DNA from: a virus
Length of the DNA: 42,170 nucleotides
IMG/VR virus record: IMGVR_UViG_3300013233_000409
Location: 1-42,170 of that record
Strand: one strand, 5' to 3'
Part shown: positions 5,107 to 24,526 of the stretch, piece after piece
Numbering within the stretch: the first letter of the stretch is position 1
Layout of the letters: the number at the start of each line of letters is the position of its first letter
Position numbers and translations under genes: made by a program
The notes under the pieces: model-generated
Seen by the model: only the letters and a program-made list of their open reading frames with translations
Databases searched by the model: none
Told to the model about the DNA's origin: nothing

Positions 5107-6681
5107 TTAGTTTAGGTAATTCATGGCAATTGAGCCAGAGATTATGTTAGCACCTGTTAATGATTTTAATGATACCCTAGTTCCAGCAGGCAAGTCAATC
5201 TCAACAATTCCCCCACCTAGAGGTAGTACCATTTGTAATATTTCTGAACCAATCGCCCCAATATAAAGTCCCATATACTGGCCGATATCTTCAACGATAT
5301 GTATTTTACTGGCTGCTCCAGGAGTAGATGCTATAACTTGTAGAAAAGTAGCTGTTGGAATAGGAGTTACAGCTGTATCAATTAATGGAGTAGTATTTAA
5401 AAATACAGGGCTTAAATTCTTTTGTTTTATAGGGGCTTGATCAGACGCCATTGTTACTGATAAAGAACCTGCCATTAGTCCTTGACCTAAAGTCGAAGGA
5501 AGTTTAGCACTTTGAGCAGCTAAAGTAGTTTCAGTAGCTGCTCCTGTAGGTAAAGGTAAACTAGCTGCACTTACAGGTTGAGTATCTGTTAATTTGGCTA
5601 ATAATCCTAACTTGGTGTCAGCAGCGGCCAATGTAGTTTCAGTAGCTGCTCCTGTAGGTAAAGGTAAACTCGCTGCACTTACAGGTTGAGTATCTGTTAA
5701 TTTAGCTAGTAAAGCTATAGCGGATTGAACCGCAGCTAAAGTAGTTTCAGTTGCTGCTCCTGTAGGTAATGGGCTTGAAGCCATACTTACAGGTTGAGTA
5801 TCAGTCAATTTAGCTAGTAATCCTAACTTAGTGTCGGCAGCGGATAAAGTTGCCTCTGTTGCAGCACCAGTTGGTAGAGGTAAACTAACTGCACTTACAG
5901 GTTGAGTATCGGTTAAATTTGCTTTTAATTGTAATTCTGTCAATAAACTACTTACAGCAGTTAAAACTCCTGCATCATGGGTTAAAGCTTCAAGTGAAGC
6001 ATTTACACCCATCTCATTTACACCATCACCAATTCTAGTTGAGTCGGCTGTAGCCCCTAAATGGCTTAACTGGACATTAATATTTCCTGCGGTGATACTT
6101 ATTGTAGTTCCACCTGCACCAACTATCTCTACTGGCATAGCAGCATTATTAGAAGGAGTGACAGTATCCCTAGTTAGTTCTACCATTGCTCCATCTTTCT
6201 TAAAGTATAATTTACTAGGTAAAGCTAAGGTATTAGCTGGAATAGCTGTATCCTCACTAACATTAGTATCAATCGTATCTCGAAGGAAAGATTGTCTAGC
6301 TGTAGTTATCATTCCACCACTAGCATCTACTGTAGGACTTAAAGCCCTCATCAAATTAAATGTATCTGTTATTGTGGGGGTATTAGGTAAATCTGAACCT
6401 AGTTTAAAAGAGTTTGGATCTATTATTTTAAGGATCGTAGCCTCAATACCAGAATTTAAACCCGTAACAAATCTAATAATATCTCCAACTACTGCTCCAT
6501 GAGCTGTTAGATTGATTATATTTTTATCTGAACCTGCTTCTATTGTTCTTACAAGAGCTACCTTATAAAAACTTTTAGGGAGTACGTCTAAACCTACCTT
6601 ATCCCCTGCTATTTCTGAAACTGTTACATGTTTTCTGTTTGATATCCGTTTACTTGACGGCATCCCTTGTATTGATGACAT
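5107..6681 (-). CDS. Fibre or receptor-binding-type structural protein with four 36-aa tandem repeats
   Basis: 524 aa. The repeat AKLTDTQPVSAASLPLPTGAATETTLAA(A/V)(D/Q).K.GLL occurs four times. The gene lies in the fibre gene block. Confidence 0.75.
   Translation of the reverse strand: MSSIQGMPSSKRISNRKHVTVSEIAGDKVGLDVLPKSFYKVALVRTIEAGSDKNIINLTAHGAVVGDIIRFVTGLNSGIEATILKIIDPNSFKLGSDLPNTPTITDTFNLMRALSPTVDASGGMITTARQSFLRDTIDTNVSEDTAIPANTLALPSKLYFKKDGAMVELTRDTVTPSNNAAMPVEIVGAGGTTISITAGNINVQLSHLGATADSTRIGDGVNEMGVNASLEALTHDAGVLTAVSSLLTELQLKANLTDTQPVSAVSLPLPTGAATEATLSAADTKLGLLAKLTDTQPVSMASSPLPTGAATETTLAAVQSAIALLAKLTDTQPVSAASLPLPTGAATETTLAAADTKLGLLAKLTDTQPVSAASLPLPTGAATETTLAAQSAKLPSTLGQGLMAGSLSVTMASDQAPIKQKNLSPVFLNTTPLIDTAVTPIPTATFLQVIASTPGAASKIHIVEDIGQYMGLYIGAIGSEILQMVLPLGGGIVEIDLPAGTRVSLKSLTGANIISGSIAMNYLN
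5491..5922 (-). repeat. Four tandem 108-bp (36-codon) in-frame repeats inside CDS 5107..6681
   Basis: The nucleotide units are nearly identical, e.g. gtagtttcagtagctgctcctgtaggtaaaggtaaact.gctgcacttacaggttgagtatctgttaattt. Repeats start at residues 254, 290, 326 and 362. Confidence 0.9.
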
Positions 6682-6713
6682 AAATCCTCCACTCCTTTAG
6701 GGTTTCTTTGTGA

Positions 6714-7034
6714 TTAAACTATTCTTTCTTTTACTACAATAGAGCTAGGGAATTGAACTATTCTTCTATCTGCCCCTACGTCTATTAATATTTCCATGCC
6801 TACCGTTCCTGCGGCTAATAATGATGTCTCTACATCAGATATAGTAAACGTACATTTACCTGAAGTAGCTGGAGCAGTTACTGTTCCTACTTTACTAAAT
6901 CTAGATCCATCAGTGTTATCCATTTCTAAGGTTACAGTAGCTCCAGTTAGATCATAAGGATCTGCTGTTGCTGCGTCATCTAATCGGACAGTTATAGTAG
7001 TGTCCTCACCTTTAACTATGTTTACTTTTGCCAT
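6714..7034 (-). CDS. Small beta-rich, Ig-like structural protein (BppU-N-like pattern)
   Basis: 106 aa. The pattern D..DLTGATVTLEM......G.VT....GKCTFTIS......AG is typical of phage Ig-like modules (recalled from memory). The stop overlaps the next gene's start. Confidence 0.6.
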   Translation of the reverse strand: MAKVNIVKGEDTTITVRLDDAATADPYDLTGATVTLEMDNTDGSRFSKVGTVTAPATSGKCTFTISDVETSLLAAGTVGMEILIDVGADRRIVQFPSSIVVKERIV

Positions 7035-7489
7035 TATGCTACTACTCCTGTTATTTCTATATTTGGCTCTATTGTACCAACTATTTCTTTATTTACAATA
7101 GTCCCACTAATGTCTAGAGTTTCTACCGTTCCGAATATATCTGATCTTAGTATATTTAAAGAAGAAACCGCTATATCTAGATTAGCACTTATGATTTCTC
7201 CTATCAAGTCTCTCATATAAATCTCCTGTGAAATTGAATGTATTGAAGATAAAGTTATCCCATCTGATTCCATTACTAGTAATGAAGCTAAAACTATATT
7301 ATTAGTAGGCATGGTTTTAGTGCTTTCAGCATATAGACCGTCCCCTTTATGAAATATTTCAAATCTAGATCCTATTAAAGTTCCAGTTATTGATTTTAGA
7401 TCTACAAATACTCTCTTAGGCTGACTAGCAGCCCCATCCCACAATTGTAGGTTTATATTTAATGTATCTCCTAGCTTTCTAAGTATCAC
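7034..7489 (-). CDS. Hypothetical structural protein
   Basis: 151-aa ORF translationally coupled on both sides. Confidence 0.7.
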   Translation of the reverse strand: MILRKLGDTLNINLQLWDGAASQPKRVFVDLKSITGTLIGSRFEIFHKGDGLYAESTKTMPTNNIVLASLLVMESDGITLSSIHSISQEIYMRDLIGEIISANLDIAVSSLNILRSDIFGTVETLDISGTIVNKEIVGTIEPNIEITGVVA

Positions 7490-16869: not shown

Positions 16870-16880
16870 ATTTACCCTTT

Positions 16881-16910
16881 CTCTATTTTTCTCTATTTTT
16901 CTCTATTTTT
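16881..16910. repeat. Three 10-bp tandem repeats (minus-strand AAAAATAGAG) between ORF 16903..17097 and the portal start
   Basis: ctctattttt occurs three times back to back. The UAG triplets fall at 16883, 16893 and 16903, one in each reading frame. Confidence 0.9.
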
Positions 16911-17097
16911 TTGCTTTTTGCAATCTAGCTCTTAATTTAGATAGTTGTAGCTTCCTTTTAGCAGCTTCTACTTTAGTCAATCCAGACTCAATATTATTTA
17001 TAATGGCCGACTCTACATACTTCTTCCCTAAACCACCACTCTTTCTATACTTTAAAAGTCTAGCTAATCTTTTATCTGATTCAGTTCTAATATCCAC
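16903..17097 (-). CDS. Small basic helical protein
   Basis: 64 aa with a GTG start 7 nt after an AGGAG SD. Confidence 0.65.
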   Translation of the reverse strand: MDIRTESDKRLARLLKYRKSGGLGKKYVESAIINNIESGLTKVEAAKRKLQLSKLRARLQKAKK

Positions 17098-17111
17098 TTA
17101 ATTCTCCTAAG

Positions 17112-17336
17112 TTACACAAATTCATGTTCAATATCAGGATACATTGTTTTCTTCATTTTCTCAACTAAGTCCTTACCAGTCAAACCTTCCTCAGCTTCAG
17201 GAATAGGCTGCCATTGTATTTGATGGGTTGATTTTTCCATTCCAACTACCTTAGCATAGGCTAAAATAGAGAAAATTGCTGTGATTGAGGTTAGTATAAT
17301 ACTAACTAAACTTAAAATAACTGCCCAATTATTCAT
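17112..17336 (-). CDS. Small membrane protein with an N-terminal TM helix
   Basis: 74 aa. The hydrophobic segment is WAVILSLVSIILTSITAIFSILAYA. Confidence 0.65.
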   Translation of the reverse strand: MNNWAVILSLVSIILTSITAIFSILAYAKVVGMEKSTHQIQWQPIPEAEEGLTGKDLVEKMKKTMYPDIEHEFV

Positions 17337-17351
17337 AAAATTCTCCTAATA

Positions 17352-17427
17352 TGGCACTCGCTCCGAGGATCGAACTCGGCTCTCCTGCGTGACAGGCAGG
17401 TATCTTCACCCTGTAGACCTAGCGAGT
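17352..17427 (-). tRNA. tRNA-Asp (anticodon GTC), with CCA encoded
   Basis: Hand-folded cloverleaf. Acceptor stem ACTCGCT/AGCGAGT, anticodon stem CCTGC/GCAGG, loop CT-GTC-AC. T-stem CCGAG/CTCGG, T-loop TTCGATC, discriminator G followed by CCA. Confidence 0.9.
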
Positions 17428-17452
17428 ATTATTCGTAATATCCATTTTTTAT

Positions 17453-19319: not shown

Positions 19320-19381
19320 TTCTAAATCTAAGATAAGATCTGACTCATATATAAGAGCCTTTTCTTGGTCACTAGTTAAGT

Positions 19382-19516
19382 TTAGATTTCCTTGTATAGC
19401 TTTTCTCCAGTTTTAACGCAAAACCCTAAAAATACCTTTTCCTTTTTAGCTGGTTTTTTGTCAATCTTTTCTTTTGGCTTACTTTTCTTAACTGGTTGTT
19501 TCTTCTCTTCACTCAT
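19382..19516 (-). CDS. 44-aa Lys-rich protein (MSEEKKQPVKKSKPKEKIDKKPAKKEKVFLGFCVKTGEKLYKEI)
   Basis: The track ORF extends to 19573, but the strong SD (TAAGGAGAAAATT-ATG) precedes the internal ATG at 19514-19516. Confidence 0.55.
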   Translation of the reverse strand: MSEEKKQPVKKSKPKEKIDKKPAKKEKVFLGFCVKTGEKLYKEI

Positions 19517-19555
19517 AATTTTCTCCTTATTACTGTTATACAAAATTATTAAACT

Positions 19556-19669
19556 GTGTTTCCCATTTGTCAACTAAGATCTCCTACGGTAAAAAATAGC
19601 AAAAATTCGTATGTGTTTCCCATTTGTCAACTAAGATCTCCCATGGTAAAAAATAGCAAAAATTCGTAT
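19556..19669. repeat. Two 57-bp tandem direct repeats, each carrying a minus-strand TTGACA
   Basis: The unit gtgtttcccatttgtcaactaagatctcc.a.ggtaaaaaatagcaaaaattcgtat occurs at 19556-19612 and 19613-19669, with 2 mismatches. Confidence 0.9.
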
Positions 19670-19739
19670 GAGGGACATGTAAACATAAATCCCTTTTTCA
19701 CTCCTTGTAGGGGGGTATCTACAGCATCAACCTATCAAC

Positions 19740-19793
19740 ACACTACGTCAACCTATAGCCCATCAATACACTACGTCAACACACTACGTCAAC
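19740..19793. repeat. Three exact copies of ACACTACGTCAAC (19740, 19768, 19781), with degenerate TCAACCTA copies around them
   Basis: Read directly from the sequence. Copies 2 and 3 are contiguous. The block lies just 3' of the terS stop. Confidence 0.9.
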
Positions 19794-19801
19794 CTACACT
19801 C

Positions 19802-20353: not shown

Positions 20354-20393
20354 ATATTAACCCGCTCTAATGATATTCCTTAAAATTTCCTCG

Positions 20394-20483
20394 TGTCAAA
20401 ATCCCGACACCTTCAAACCTCATAATATCCTAATATCCTTAGACATGTCAAACTATTGACAACGCCATGTCAAAACTATGACC
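20394..20483. promoter_or_regulatory. Three TGTC-N8-GACA operator-like palindromes in the divergent control region, overlapping leftward sigma70-like promoters
   Basis: O1 is 20394-20409 TGTCAAAATCCCGACA, O2 is 20446-20461 TGTCAAACTATTGACA, and O3 is 20468-20483 TGTCAAAACTATGACC. On the minus strand, TTGACA-N18-TATTAT starts in O2 and TTGACA-N18-TATCAT starts in O1. Confidence 0.6.
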
Positions 20484-20590
20484 CCTCATCTACCTAACTA
20501 CCTAAAATCTCACTGTATATCCTCAATAAAACTTGGCATAGAGAGTGCATATAGATTAGTAAGATTAATATCAACTAATAGGAGAACAAA

Positions 20591-21162: not shown

Positions 21163-21426
21163 ATGAAAGATAAAACAGAAATATTAATACTAGACTGGAC
21201 AGGTGCAACTCTCTATGAAGGCAGCTATAAAAATGAATCTGAAATAAACAAGGTTTTGGATGCAAATAGATGCAATTGTGAAAACGATATGACTGCACTT
21301 GAGCATGAAATAATGATTTGTCCAAATTGCAACGATACTGGATATTTAGGAGATATTGAAATTTACTGGAAATATCCAGAGCTACAAGATAAAGAAAGTA
21401 ATGTATTTGACTATATCAACTATTAA
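21163..21426 (+). CDS. Small zinc-ribbon-like early protein
   Basis: 87 aa with CNC...CPNC cysteine pairs and a GGAG SD. Confidence 0.7.
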   Translation: MKDKTEILILDWTGATLYEGSYKNESEINKVLDANRCNCENDMTALEHEIMICPNCNDTGYLGDIEIYWKYPELQDKESNVFDYINY

Positions 21427-21754: not shown

Positions 21755-22159
21755 CTAACCTAGGGACAAATAACCATCATCCAGCATCCTAATAAGATCC
21801 TCGGCAAGTATTGTGACCTTCCACTGCTCGCCGTTTCTTCTATGCCAAACGCTAGCTATTTGTCCCTTATTCATATCCTCAACACATTTCATCAAAGCTT
21901 TATCAATATTCAACGCCTGGACTCTTTTACACTCAATAGATAACCTACTAAGTTTCTCACAAATAACGTCTTGGTCGCCATTGGCCCCACAAAACTGTTG
22001 ACCTCTCCTAGCCTCATAACCTCTCTCACTTAAGAACTTTGCTAGCTCCCTCTCTCCACTAGCTCCCTTAGCTCTACTATTTATTCTCTTAACCTTAGAC
22101 TTAACCTTAGATTTAATTTTTTTTTTATCCATAATATTAATCCTTTGCATAGTTGACAT
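21755..22159 (-). CDS. Hjc/PD-(D/E)XK-type Holliday junction resolvase-like nuclease; the only inverted gene in the plus arm
   Basis: The motif string is KGASGERELAKFL..GY.A.R...G..GDQDVI......SIECKR. The probable true start is the ATG at 22130-22132 (MDKKKIKSK), which has an AAGGA SD. An A10 run lies at codons 3-6. Confidence 0.7.
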   Translation of the reverse strand: MSTMQRINIMDKKKIKSKVKSKVKRINSRAKGASGERELAKFLSERGYEARRGQQFCGANGDQDVICEKLSRLSIECKRVQALNIDKALMKCVEDMNKGQIASVWHRRNGEQWKVTILAEDLIRMLDDGYLSLG

Positions 22160-22233
22160 AGTTACAAGATTAGATTAGTATTTATCTTATGAGTATGTCT
22201 AATACAAATACATTTCACAACAATTCTAATAGC

Positions 22234-22509
22234 AATACTGCTATACTTAACACTACTAAAAGTGTAAATCAAAGTATAGCGCGAATTGCATTTTTGCCTA
22301 AATATAGCAGTATTGAAATCAAAGAAGGCTTCTTTCTACTTTCCCTGCAATGTAGGTAAAAGTTCAAAATATCGCTATACTTTAAGCGTATACTATGCCC
22401 AAAATTCTAACAAGTATAGCACTATTATCATCTAACCTATCGTAATTATTCTATTTATCACTTTTATTTAAGTATAGCACTATTTTAGTGTTGACCTATG
22501 GTATACTTA
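22234..22509. promoter_or_regulatory. Iteron-like array of at least six 15-mers AAGTATAGC(A/G)(C/G)TATT in both orientations (candidate origin or operator cluster)
   Basis: Copies at 22234-22248(-), 22272-22286(+), 22300-22314(+), 22368-22382(-), 22412-22426(+) and 22470-22484(+). Partial copies at 22384-22397 and 22500-22509, and one more inside the next ORF at 22619-22629. Confidence 0.7.
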
Positions 22510-22525
22510 GGAATAGGGTAAATAC

Positions 22526-22840
22526 ATGAAAAACATCAAAAAGCCAGCTACAAACGAGATTTATTTAAGAGCCAAAAACGAACGTTTTTACGAAGTGTCA
22601 AATCTGGGTAATATTCGCAAGTATAGCACAAAAACACCTGTAAAAACTCACCTAGATTCTAAGGGATTTATCAAGTTCCATTGTAAAACAGGTAACTATT
22701 ATAATAGTAAATTTACTACTAAGTATGTCCATAGATTAGTAGCTGAATTGTTTTGTCCTAATCCTATGGAGTTTAAAAGAGTTATTTTCCTTGATGGGAA
22801 TAAACATAACATAACATCAACTAATTTAGAATGGAGGTAA
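22526..22840 (+). CDS. NUMOD4 + HNH_3-like protein lacking catalytic residues (degenerate homing endonuclease)
   Basis: 104 aa. It carries YEVSNLGNIRK (NUMOD4) and VHRLVAELFCPNP....VIFLDGNKHNITSTNLEWR. The usual (D/N)H before (I/V)DGN is IF here, and the ORF stops right after NLEW. Confidence 0.75.
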   Translation: MKNIKKPATNEIYLRAKNERFYEVSNLGNIRKYSTKTPVKTHLDSKGFIKFHCKTGNYYNSKFTTKYVHRLVAELFCPNPMEFKRVIFLDGNKHNITSTNLEWR

Positions 22841-22843
22841 GTA

Positions 22844-23116
22844 ATGAGTAAAAGTAACGCACAAATACTAGGATTTAGTTTTAGTTTATTGACTGGCTTA
22901 ATGTTTTCAGTAATAGCTACTACTAAAAAGATTGACCGATTAGAGAAAACAGTAATAATAAGAGAAAATCAAGCTATGTTAATCCAGGCGGATCTGAGAG
23001 ATGTTCAGTTAAAACTAGACAGACTATTTCATTGTGACGCTAACGACGATTGTAAACTTGTTAGGGAAGGTGTTTTTAATTATTTAGATATGAACTTGTG
23101 GGAGAAAGAGAGATGA
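22844..23116 (+). CDS. Small membrane protein with one N-terminal TM helix
   Basis: 90 aa. The hydrophobic segment is ILGFSFSLLTGLMFSVIATT. Confidence 0.7.
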   Translation: MSKSNAQILGFSFSLLTGLMFSVIATTKKIDRLEKTVIIRENQAMLIQADLRDVQLKLDRLFHCDANDDCKLVREGVFNYLDMNLWEKER

Positions 23117-23397
23117 GAACACGAGAAGAGATTGAAAAGATAAAAGAGAAAGGACTATATCACTTAGAAACATCATCGGGGCTTTGTAGTGTTATAGCAA
23201 GTTTAGGATGGGGTGGATATATCTCTAGATCAGAAAAAACCCTGTTAATGGTTGAAATCAAAAAAATGTCTAAGATACAAGAAAACAAAAACAGAAAAGA
23301 ATCTTTCTTTTTAGGCAAGGCATATGGAAAAAAAGAAATTAGGTCATACATATTTTTATTAGCAATTGAGAAACTATATTCAGAGAGGGAATTATGA
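23113..23397 (+). CDS. Hypothetical protein
   Basis: The track starts at GTG 23098. The ATG at 23113 has a GGAG SD and forms an ATGA overlap with the upstream stop. Confidence 0.65.
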   Translation: MRTREEIEKIKEKGLYHLETSSGLCSVIASLGWGGYISRSEKTLLMVEIKKMSKIQENKNRKESFFLGKAYGKKEIRSYIFLLAIEKLYSEREL

Positions 23398-23591
23398 AAG
23401 CTTATTATAGACTGACCTTATTAAACCTAAGTGATGAAAGCACAGAGTTTAATCAAGTTTTTAGTTGTGCGGCTTCAAAAGACACAGGGCTAAAGGTTGG
23501 TGACATAATAAAAGTGAAAGCTTTTAATGATAAATATAAAATATTAAATATAGAGAAAGTACCTAATCCTGCTTTAATAACTTTAGAGTAA
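23394..23591 (+). CDS. Hypothetical small protein
   Basis: 65 aa with an ATGA overlap to the upstream gene. Confidence 0.65.
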   Translation: MKAYYRLTLLNLSDESTEFNQVFSCAASKDTGLKVGDIIKVKAFNDKYKILNIEKVPNPALITLE

Positions 23592-23639
23592 GTAGGTGCA
23601 TATAAACCAGAAGGTTACAACTAGTGGAAGGAGTAAATT

Positions 23640-24041
23640 ATGAGCAAGATATTAAACAACAAAGAGGCGTTACTAGCTATACTAGACAGAAAAACTATTA
23701 AGACCCCTGATAATATATATTTTAAATACTCAGATAATGAAGTTTTAGCTAAATATACTGGCAGAATGACTCGGGAGAGAGCTTTTTCAATGAATAGTTT
23801 TGGTGAGTTTGTGGTAGTAGAGCCAGAACGTGAAACCATTACATTTTACGAGCATATTTGTGATCGTGGGCACATAATATTTTTAACAGAAGATAATGAA
23901 TATTTATCTTTTTATAGGCCAAATAATGTTTTAAATGAAATTTCTTATTCTGAAAAATGCCGCAAACTCTATCGCAATGGTATATGTCAAGAGGTTAAGG
24001 TTTACGCTGACACTTTAGAATATGTACAGGAGGGAGAATGA
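23640..24041 (+). CDS. Hypothetical protein
   Basis: 133 aa with a GGAAGGAG SD. Confidence 0.7.
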   Translation: MSKILNNKEALLAILDRKTIKTPDNIYFKYSDNEVLAKYTGRMTRERAFSMNSFGEFVVVEPERETITFYEHICDRGHIIFLTEDNEYLSFYRPNNVLNEISYSEKCRKLYRNGICQEVKVYADTLEYVQEGE

Positions 24042-24526
24042 AAGAAAAAAAAGAACTTCTAAAGCATATACATGAGCTTATTTATCTATGTAATAAAGGA
24101 GAGTTTGGTTGGGAGAATAGAGAGTTTAAAACTTTTAATAACCTAGTTTTAAAATACGATTACGATAAAGATATAGATATATATTGTTTGTACGATATTT
24201 ATAAAAAACAAAAAGATGAAATTAAACAACTAAAAATAGAGGTTTCGGCAGAAAAGGAAATAAGCTTTAAGAATAGCGAAGCAATAGGAGTTTATTATAA
24301 GAAGTGTGAAAAGCTCGAAGCCGACCTAAAACGTGAACAATCTTGTGTTGATTATTATGCAGATACAAATCATTGGGATAAGAATATTGGTTATAGATGT
24401 CTAAATTACACTGACTATAATGTTATACTAGGTGAAGATTTAAGCAGTTATAATAGTAATGATGAGGGTTATGGCGGTGAAAAGGCAAGAAAAACACAAC
24501 AACAAAGGGTAAAGGAAGAGGAATAA
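24038..24526 (+). CDS. Hypothetical protein with a C-terminal YYAD..NW......GGEKAR motif
   Basis: 162 aa with an ATGA overlap. I recall the motif as recurrent in phage replication regions. Confidence 0.7.
   Translation: MKEKKELLKHIHELIYLCNKGEFGWENREFKTFNNLVLKYDYDKDIDIYCLYDIYKKQKDEIKQLKIEVSAEKEISFKNSEAIGVYYKKCEKLEADLKREQSCVDYYADTNHWDKNIGYRCLNYTDYNVILGEDLSSYNSNDEGYGGEKARKTQQQRVKEEE

Follow-up and report, generated by a model that had tools for sequence, protein, structure and literature searches.

The DNA analysed here is the complete IMG/VR record IMGVR_UViG_3300013233_000409, a phage-like metagenomic contig of 42,170 nucleotides (42 kb, 35% GC; hereafter the window), and our subject is an array of short repeats that fills the intergenic region between two divergent genes (Table 1). 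A minus-strand gene for a PD-(D/E)XK resolvase-like protein lies to the left of the array. To its right is a plus-strand open reading frame (ORF) of 104 amino acids (aa) whose product resembles the N-terminal half of a NUMOD4/HNH_3 homing endonuclease, and which is termed the dead HNH below for the reasons given. Searches revealed no DNA similarity between the window and deposited phages and no relatives among GTDB genomes. The minus strand carries the structural and packaging genes. Replication genes, among them those for a DUF5906 primase-helicase and a family-A polymerase (PolA), are clustered with small early genes in a plus-strand block at 20.6-33.5 kb. The primase-helicase, a 498-aa protein of the superfamily 3 (SF3) type, is encoded 2 kb downstream of the dead HNH. 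Genes in the window use Shine-Dalgarno sites, and near-consensus sigma-70 promoters are present in its other intergenic regions. The resolvase-like protein falls under the Pfam cut-offs for PDDEXK_15 (3e-5) and Hjc (7e-4) and matches PHROG_244, 'RusA-like Holliday junction resolvase', at 1.5e-18. An initial annotation described the region from 22160 to 22525 as the largest non-coding stretch of the genome, which is correct only if two longer ORF-free gaps, 16870-17452 and 19320-19801, are credited with small conserved ORFs and a tRNA gene. The tRNA in question is tRNA-Asp (GTC), encoded on the minus strand at 17352-17427 between the packaging and the structural genes.

The repeats are readily recognized by their core. 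The 9-mer AAGTATAGC has six exact occurrences in the whole window, all of them inside 22240-22627 (~390 bp), compared with an order-0 expectation of 0.53 for the whole 42 kb on both strands, and the cluster is far beyond chance. A scan of the whole window with the 15-mer AAGTATAGCANTATT, allowing at most two mismatches, returns five sites (c1, c3, c4, c5 and c6 in Table 1), and all five are in the array. These full 15-mers are ordered - + - + + and take part in a nested dyad around 22329, in which the midpoint of c1/c5 is at 22330 and that of c2/c4 is at 22327, at the small palindrome listed in the table. The cluster of repeats in both orientations reported in the initial annotation is therefore present as described, with partial copies in addition to the full ones.

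Table 1. Features of the locus in the window, with their counterparts in L123, the syntenic relative described in the text
Feature	Sequence	Position	Strand	Counterpart in L123	Remarks
Resolvase-like gene, PD-(D/E)XK (PDDEXK_15/Hjc-like)		21755..22159	-		Left neighbour, transcribed away from the array
Predicted promoter P1	TTGACA-17-TAGTAT	22153..22181	+	TTGACA-17-TACTAT at the homologous position, 6453-6481	10/12 match; reads rightward into the array; predicted function
Site c1	AAGTATAGCAGTATT	22234..22248	-	d1, 6532-6546(-)	Full
Site c2	AAGTATAGCGCGAAT	22272..22286	+	d2, 6568-6582(+)	9-base core only, 9/15
Site c3	AAATATAGCAGTATT	22300..22314	+	none	Full, 1 mismatch
Central palindrome	AAAGAAGGCTTCTTT	22322..22336	.		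Centre of the nested dyad, read from sequence
Site c4	AAGTATAGCGATATT	22368..22382	-	d4, 6657-6671(-)	Full, 1 mismatch
Fragment	TAGTATA	22389..22395	-		After c4
Site c5	AAGTATAGCACTATT	22412..22426	+	d5, 6704-6718(+)	Consensus
Site c6	AAGTATAGCACTATT	22470..22484	+	d6, 6757-6771(+)	Consensus; best-conserved block of the pairwise alignment (A5)
Predicted promoter P2 of the dead HNH	TTGACC-17-TAGGGT	22491..22519	+	TTGACA (6807-6812)-18-TACTTT (6831-6836), then 6 bases to ATG at 6843	6 bases to ATG at 22526; read from sequence
Site c7	AAGTATACCATAGGT	22495..22509	-	TAGTATATTAGTCAC, 6818-6832(-)	Degenerate inverted copy in the P2 spacer
Nuclease-dead (by homology), truncated NUMOD4/HNH_3 (I-HmuI-like) protein, 104 aa		22526..22840	+	96-aa protein	Based on homology, fold, family and selection
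Site c8	AAGTATAGCAC	22619..22633	+	none at this position	11-base copy (22619-22629) within the ORF, codons K32-Y-S-T

Several lines of evidence place the 104-aa protein in the NUMOD4/HNH_3 family, as the initial annotation had proposed. Pfam HNH_3 (23.2 bits, cut-off 24.8) and NUMOD4 (20.0 bits, cut-off 23.4) both score just under threshold, PHROG 'HNH endonuclease' is matched at 8e-19, and tblastn with the protein reaches 1,310 phage records at 35-45% identity. Residues 19-103 match the sequence of I-HmuI (1U3E) with E = 1.5e-6. An AlphaFold model of the protein has a predicted local distance difference test (pLDDT) score of 87.8 when built from an alignment of 112 sequences, which was needed because a 3-sequence alignment gave 41. 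The sole significant PDB match of this model is again 1U3E (template modelling (TM) score 0.77, root-mean-square deviation 1.9 A). The modelled fold is that of the N-terminal half of an I-HmuI-type nuclease, comprising its beta-sheet domain and, from the beta-beta-alpha-metal motif, the beta hairpin, and the structural Asn is kept (N100 here, N87 in I-HmuI). The beta-sheet domain and the HNH_3 signature that define the family are thus found in this protein, and the catalytic and C-terminal elements are not.

The missing elements are specific ones. When aligned with 1U3E, Ile87-Phe88 stand in place of Asp74-His75 of I-HmuI, and among the 112 homologs the column of Phe88 is His in 106, while that of Ile87 is Asn or Asp in the same number. 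The ORF stops one residue after NLEW, which is the equivalent of I-HmuI residue 91, so the helix bearing Asn96 is absent, as are the helices that follow and the C-terminal helix-turn-helix. We take Asp74, His75 and Asn96 to be catalytic in I-HmuI, with His75 serving as the general base and Asn96 as the distal metal ligand. A passage in one paper (PMC9410903) refers to an asparagine of I-HmuI whose catalytic role was validated by experiment, with Shen et al. 2004 as its source. By homology, the 104-aa protein is catalytically dead, and both features from which the initial annotation had argued this, namely Ile-Phe at the catalytic position and a truncation after NLEW that removes the distal ligand, are borne out by the alignments. 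No relic of the missing C-terminal half was found by a profile search downstream in all frames. An ORF of 90 aa, which starts in frame one codon past the stop (TAA GTA ATG; 22838-22846), was considered as that missing half and ruled out, with profile scores of at most 3.5 bits in any frame. This second ORF has a hydrophobic N-terminal stretch that possibly spans the membrane.

A profile-free exhaustive search yielded two short homologs, P0036 (96 aa) and P0029 (124 aa), each of which carries V-K-F-L-D-G-N-K and ends one residue after NLEW. The three family members are 40-52% identical, and all have Phe for His together with the same stop. A profile of the three scores its own members at 172-185 bits and the next protein at 74. 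The three still group in a neighbour-joining tree with the catalytic columns masked, and the same tree does not support a single lineage for other Phe variants. P0036 is encoded by L123, a 7.9-kb contig from the Joint Genome Institute (JGI), and between this contig and the window the dead HNH is 50-52% identical, its gene having proportions of non-synonymous and synonymous differences (pN and pS) of 0.36 and 0.71 and a ratio of the two rates (dN/dS) of ~0.23. The small terminase is similar in this respect (dN/dS = 0.37). The patchy presence expected of a mobile gene is not seen: L123 and three strain variants all have the dead HNH at this position, truncated in the same way. Because the Phe substitution and the stop are shared, dN/dS is 0.23 and there is no C-terminal relic, the view that this is a maintained, domesticated gene and not a decaying element is well supported.

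A selfish homing endonuclease in decay beside functionless repeats is an alternative. It draws on the sub-threshold Pfam scores of the ORF and on a cluster of purely non-synonymous changes in one strain (described below), but truncation and His-to-Phe change alike are common to three members that have diverged to 40-52% identity, and both the position of the gene and the architecture of the array are conserved. We regard it as largely refuted and give it scarcely any weight. A full-length, active HNH at this site without the repeats in a close relative had been named as the finding that would speak for decay, and the opposite was encountered in L123, where a truncated dead HNH is accompanied by an array.

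Three strain variants, L001, L002 and L121, match the window at 93-99% identity; with arrays identical to that of the window, they are uninformative on site conservation. Within ORF codons 1-34, L121 (99.3% identical) has four non-synonymous changes (R15I, G28S, K32M and S34I) and no synonymous ones, compared with 30 synonymous and 6 non-synonymous changes in its neighbouring genes. This cluster could be due to diversifying selection or be an assembly artefact; strain mixing in the assembly is possible because the changes all lie at the contig end. Two of the underlying substitutions, A22620T and G22626T, destroy c8, and G22500A takes c7 further from the consensus. The additional copy noted inside the ORF in the initial annotation thus exists but is not conserved: besides the loss in L121, L123 has none at the corresponding position, and its own in-ORF 9-mer, at 7053(-), is a different one. 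The significance of c8 is uncertain.

L123 is considerably more informative. Its portal and large terminase are 81% identical to those of the window, its small terminase 53% and its resolvase 84-85%, and the contig ends before its helicase gene. The layout is that of the window, with resolvase(-), ~390 bp of non-coding DNA and the dead, truncated 96-aa HNH(+) in succession. The consensus of its repeats is AAGTATATTACTTTT, with five sites (at most two mismatches) at 6532(-), 6568(+), 6657(-), 6704(+) and 6757(+) and partial copies at 6673, 6750 and 6818-6832. The strong sites follow the same order, - + - + +, in both genomes and span 225 bp in L123 and 236 bp in the window, and L123 likewise has a nested dyad (midpoints 6625 and 6620). 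Nevertheless, positions 8, 9 and 13 of the 15-mer differ between the two genomes in every copy, and in a scan of the window and L123 at up to two mismatches the motif of the other genome was absent from either array. In a pairwise alignment of the two regions (A5), conservation is concentrated in the left promoter and the repeat cores, and the spacers are essentially unalignable. A 56-aa ORF in the array (22189-22359) and a 57-aa ORF in L123 (6491-6664) were taken as spurious, since neither their sequence nor their frame relative to the repeats is common to both.

Because all copies change together while the architecture is conserved and the spacers are free to diverge, we suspect a phage-encoded reader whose specificity has changed. 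Concerted site change is what co-evolution with such a reader predicts, and the observed pattern points to it. The genes past the dead HNH are different in L123 and the window and are mosaic between strains; therefore, the array is accompanied in both genomes only by the resolvase gene and the dead HNH. The co-occurrence of array and truncated HNH in related genomes, which had been proposed as a check, is seen in L123, the only syntenic relative found. Elsewhere, none of 79 other viral contigs has a dead HNH beside its resolvase homolog, and none of the 34 contigs checked has an array upstream of it. As a separate observation, the mosaic zone in the strains extends from 23000 to 24500, where identity to L001/L002 falls from ~100% to roughly 60-85% over small early genes, and identity is back above 99% at the primase-helicase gene.

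From the sequence comparisons, we read the region 22160-22525 as a conserved, probable cluster of sites at which a sequence-specific protein encoded by the phage binds DNA. The adjacent 104-aa protein is most likely the binder, and it is the best candidate because it is linked to the array, diverges rapidly yet under constraint, and retains a DNA-reading domain.

Two accounts dispense with such a protein. The repeats might form a cluster of host sigma-70 promoters in both directions, with the opposite-strand core TGCTATACTT acting as an extended -10. Phages often have clustered early promoters, the two genomes have the TATACT portion in common, and TG precedes it in most copies in the window. 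This TG is gone from all copies in L123 (TAATATACT), however, and only one copy has even a weak -35, although clear TTGACA-17/18-TATnAT promoters exist elsewhere in the window. In addition, the concerted change would fall at -14 to -21, where host polymerase offers no explanation for it, and four or five copies would be aimed at a single 134-aa gene. We consider this account improbable.

The second account takes the inverted copies as stems of a structured leader RNA transcribed from P1 (or of a DNA cruciform) and the concerted changes as compensatory. Both leaders do fold into the same nested hairpin, in which c1 pairs with c5 and c2 with c4 (z -3.6 and -4.6), but any inverted set of binding sites would give the same folding signal. 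One sequence serves for all stems, the perfect copy c6 is left unpaired along with a fifth strong site, and the AAGTATA core is conserved as sequence beyond what pairing demands. Nor is the central hairpin conserved, given that region 22285-22370 folds with z = -2.97 and its L123 counterpart does not fold. The array has no match in Rfam, the only one in the window being the tRNA-Asp gene. A leader RNA thus seems very improbable indeed.

Predicted promoters flank the array in both genomes. The segment TTGACATA at P1 is one of the few conserved blocks of alignment A5. At P2, the distance from TTGAC to ATG is 35 in the window and 36 in L123; the -10 hexamers are weak in both genomes, and P2 was not called by a consensus promoter scan. 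The region of P2 and the start codon in L123 has no Shine-Dalgarno sequence, and the dead-HNH mRNA is possibly leaderless. Each genome has a degenerate inverted copy of the repeat within its predicted P2, and the one in L123 overlaps the -10. A comparable arrangement is familiar from iteron replicons, in which full sites lie upstream and partial inverted iterons over the rep promoter are bound by Rep dimers. We infer P1, P2 and autoregulation from these features.

Other promoter-associated repeats occur nearby. The 10-mer TAGATTAGTA is found three times, at 20552-20561, 22171-22180 and 22732-22741. Two of these copies cover the -10 of predicted rightward promoters, namely TTGGCA...TAGATTAGTAAGAT upstream of 20591 and P1, which suggests a shared type of early promoter, and the third is inside the dead-HNH ORF. 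The divergent region 20354-20590, which separates the small terminase gene from the first early gene on the plus strand, contains three minus-strand copies of GTC-N4-5-TTTTGACA(T/C), two of which are 11/12 sigma-70 promoters (TTGACA-18-TATTAT and TTGACA-18-TATCAT) aimed at the terminase gene.

The promoter arrangement raises the prospect of an array that is purely an operator region, through which the dead HNH, as a repressor or a switch, would regulate the early rightward operon and the divergent resolvase gene from operators between P1 and P2, with no role in replication. The array fills a divergent intergenic region with a conserved, strong predicted P1, and a degenerate site lies over the predicted promoter of the gene itself in both genomes. 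The homing endonuclease I-TevI represses its own expression through an operator in its promoter. In CapR, the DNA-binding domain of a homing endonuclease is a proven repressor (PMC8096241). Yet seven or eight sites over ~300 bp, with a nested dyad mostly 50-300 bp downstream of P1, exceed what a simple operator needs, and the links to replication genes would be left unexplained. We judge this account unlikely.

The reading that we prefer, tentatively and at somewhat less than even confidence, is an iteron-like origin together with an autoregulated binder, the dead HNH. A homing endonuclease, a nickase of the I-HmuI type, would have been domesticated with loss of its catalytic centre, while the N-terminal beta-sheet domain that reads DNA was kept. 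Its monomers would occupy asymmetric 15-bp sites, arranged as the inverted pairs c1/c5 and c2/c4 around the central palindrome with the full site c6 at the right. The resulting assembly would mark an iteron-like origin at the head of the replication genes and might help to load the SF3-type primase-helicase, and binding to the degenerate c7 inside the promoter of the gene itself would provide autoregulation. We infer both the identity of the binder and the origin function. The nested dyad leans toward an origin, as does the location of the array where the replication block begins. Two parallels described below, the surroundings of the protein P0159 and the resolvase homologs upstream of a replisome-organiser-like gene, lean the same way. 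The minimum of the cumulative GC skew, at 22.4-22.8 kb, falls here too, although it is confounded by the orientation of the resolvase gene. The array also has the multiple, replicon-specific repeats of 15-22 bp that characterize iterons, with five full and three partial copies and a lineage-specific consensus.

Several observations weigh against this reading. The GC-skew minimum loses force through the confounding by gene orientation. Iterons are classically direct and regularly phased, unlike these copies, whose mixed orientation (- + + - + + -) is combined with irregular and only roughly conserved spacing (28-68 bp). AT content in 40-base windows reaches its maximum of 80% at 22440-22480 compared with ~65% for the whole window, and no sharp AT-rich island that would mark an unwinding element is seen. 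Much of the DNA contact of I-HmuI is supplied by its C-terminal helices and helix-turn-helix, which the 104-aa protein does not have. The changes at the start of the ORF in L121 are exclusively non-synonymous and hit the conserved Gly28. Conservation of the sites was compared between two lineages only. In L003 and L120, distant relatives through the primase-helicase, both the array and the dead HNH are absent and there is no equivalent intergenic region; therefore, the pair is not essential to this replication module. Finally, no array adjoins the genes of two other Phe-variant dead HNH proteins, P0180 and P0213. Overall, domestication is well supported, and the proposed mechanism is plausible.

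Alternatively, the array could function as an origin, or in cis in some other way, with a reader such as the C-terminal region of the DUF5906 primase-helicase, and the dead HNH would then serve another purpose. SF3 primase-helicases of the P4 alpha and SaPI Rep type bind their own repeat-containing origins; the helicase gene here is only 2 kb away, and the helicase of another contig, L208, has its own HTH_56 domain. Further candidates exist among the other small early proteins, one of which is a Cys-rich 87-aa ORF at 21163-21426. Against a different reader, mosaicism between strains affects the genes that separate the dead HNH from the helicase, only the dead HNH and the resolvase stay linked to the array, and the helicase has relatives without an array. 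We consider this option quite unlikely. Independently of this question, L003 (4421-4825) and L120 (9177-9581) each carry a 134-aa classical HNH (PF01844, 25.3 bits) that overlaps the start of the primase-helicase gene.

An extended form of the origin reading, which we think rather unlikely, has the dead I-HmuI-like protein as the origin-recognition protein itself. It would then represent a new HNH-derived class of initiator or helicase-loading factor that recruits the SF3 primase-helicase to a dyad-symmetric set of 15-bp sites with which it co-evolves, a role that P0159 and other dead NUMOD4 proteins with Phe for His would fill in other mobile elements. P0159 is a 112-aa dead NUMOD4/HNH protein whose gene begins 10 bases after a gene for a DUF927 + HTH_56 (Cch-type) helicase. 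It is followed by approximately nine copies of (A/G)GTGTAAC(C/T) in both orientations, which flank an AT-rich stretch; the locus is at L208 2472-2999 and L209 299-950, and the repeats in L209 are GGTGTAACC repeats. From its sequence, this succession of repeats, AT-rich DNA and repeats appears origin-like. Proximity to any such array, at 400 bases or less, is seen for only ~5% of 914 kb of viral DNA. In gut-phage contigs, a homologous PDDEXK_15 gene is directly upstream of a 272-aa replisome-organiser-like gene (L155 6001-6700; ~30 similar loci, L154-L204), whose coding sequence includes five AAGTGACAAGCA-type repeats in tandem, an arrangement resembling that of a lambda O-type origin.

Repeats were also noted in other contigs. 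In L206 (2626-3040, 5001-5492), a 630-bp gap is occupied by about ten copies of AATTACTCA, grouped into two clusters of opposite orientation. The gap immediately precedes a 342-aa gene with a weak I-HmuI_NUMOD-like match, and the gene for P0180 (163 aa) is 2 kb downstream. An IMG/VR scan for two copies of AAGTATAGC 30-60 bases apart returned more than 116 loci. The multi-copy loci among them, which have TACTTTT..AAAAGTATAGCAAAA in common, were ruled out as relatives, being on giant-virus contigs that encode an NCLDV (nucleocytoplasmic large DNA virus) capsid protein, an intein-containing Rpb2 and a poly(A) polymerase and share no proteins with the window; the 9-mer is a coincidence. The NCLDV contigs have tandem arrays of 5-11 copies, with a period of 26-46 bases, of the motif TACTTTT-N3-5-AAAAGTATAGCAAAA (a 7-bp palindrome plus TAGCAAAA), often at several places per contig and in both orientations. 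Examples are L056, L051, L105, L071, L037, L101 and L036, as well as L013, L029, L034, L041, L108, L110 and L112. In these viruses, the motif may signal promoters or terminators.

Known systems resemble this locus in part. Relative to I-HmuI, apart from the losses already described, the gene is fixed in synteny in two diverged genomes, whereas the presence of a homing endonuclease is variable, and multiple copies of a short site adjoin it in place of a single long homing site. WhiA is a bacterial transcription factor derived from a LAGLIDADG endonuclease. In WhiA, as in the putative regulator described here, the fold of a homing endonuclease has been put to use in DNA-binding regulation after loss of the catalytic residues; WhiA differs in being cellular, in its endonuclease family and in having gained a helix-turn-helix, where the 104-aa protein has lost one. 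Iteron-type replicons (plasmids pPS10, F, R6K and P1, lambda O/ori, P4 alpha/ori and SaPI Rep/ori) share with the locus several copies of a 15-22 bp site beside the gene of the candidate binder and lineage-specific sites; a partial inverted copy over the promoter of that gene, as in these replicons, is predicted here. Here, in contrast, the copies form a nested dyad of mixed orientation and irregular spacing, there is no clear AT-rich unwinding element or DnaA box, and the candidate binder is unrelated to the known Rep, O and alpha families.

Two precedents concern phages and their satellites. CapR, from the PLE satellite of Vibrio cholerae, is a domesticated DNA-binding domain of a homing endonuclease that acts as a repressor (PMC8096241). 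Like CapR, the dead HNH is a small, stand-alone DNA-binding portion of a phage homing-endonuclease family that lacks the nuclease and is under selection, with binding being predicted in its case. CapR, however, derives from T5orf172 (GIY-YIG superfamily), has a zinc finger, is satellite-encoded and represses a promoter of the helper phage (PMC8096241). The N-terminal zinc-finger homology of CapR/T5orf172 is not found in the 104-aa protein, which is I-HmuI-like in sequence and fold, and no co-evolving repeat array lies beside the CapR gene. Odn of phage ICP1 shares an iteron-binding domain with RepA_N, the replication initiator of PLE (PMC8263062), an indication that homing-endonuclease genes and iteron-binding initiators exchange DNA-binding domains and that iterons and their readers diversify together, as the sites and their candidate reader may have done here. 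Odn is an active nuclease directed against a foreign origin, whereas the nuclease of this locus is dead and its sites are in the genome of the phage itself. The initial annotation's statement that no example of such a pairing has been described was accordingly too strong: WhiA and the autorepression of I-TevI are partial precedents. So are CapR (PMC8096241) and Odn (PMC8263062). For HNH/NUMOD4 proteins, we found no precedent in the literature, and a search on NUMOD4 gave only routine genome annotations.

Decay after fixation is the fate usually assigned to homing endonucleases, which are regarded as selfish genes. In contrast, the HNH-derived family described here has lost its catalytic residues and C-terminal half yet is under purifying selection, in a fixed place and beside a co-varying array of sites. 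If binding occurs as proposed, this would be the first HNH/NUMOD4 endonuclease domesticated into a DNA-binding factor, the known cases being CapR (GIY-YIG-related) and WhiA (LAGLIDADG). It would represent a compact, monomeric reader of approximately 100 residues for asymmetric 15-bp sites, and the two natural pairs of protein and site (AAGTATAGCACTATT and AAGTATATTACTTTT) could be swapped to study the recognition code. For this uncultured phage group, the array would then provide a testable candidate for an origin or an early control region.

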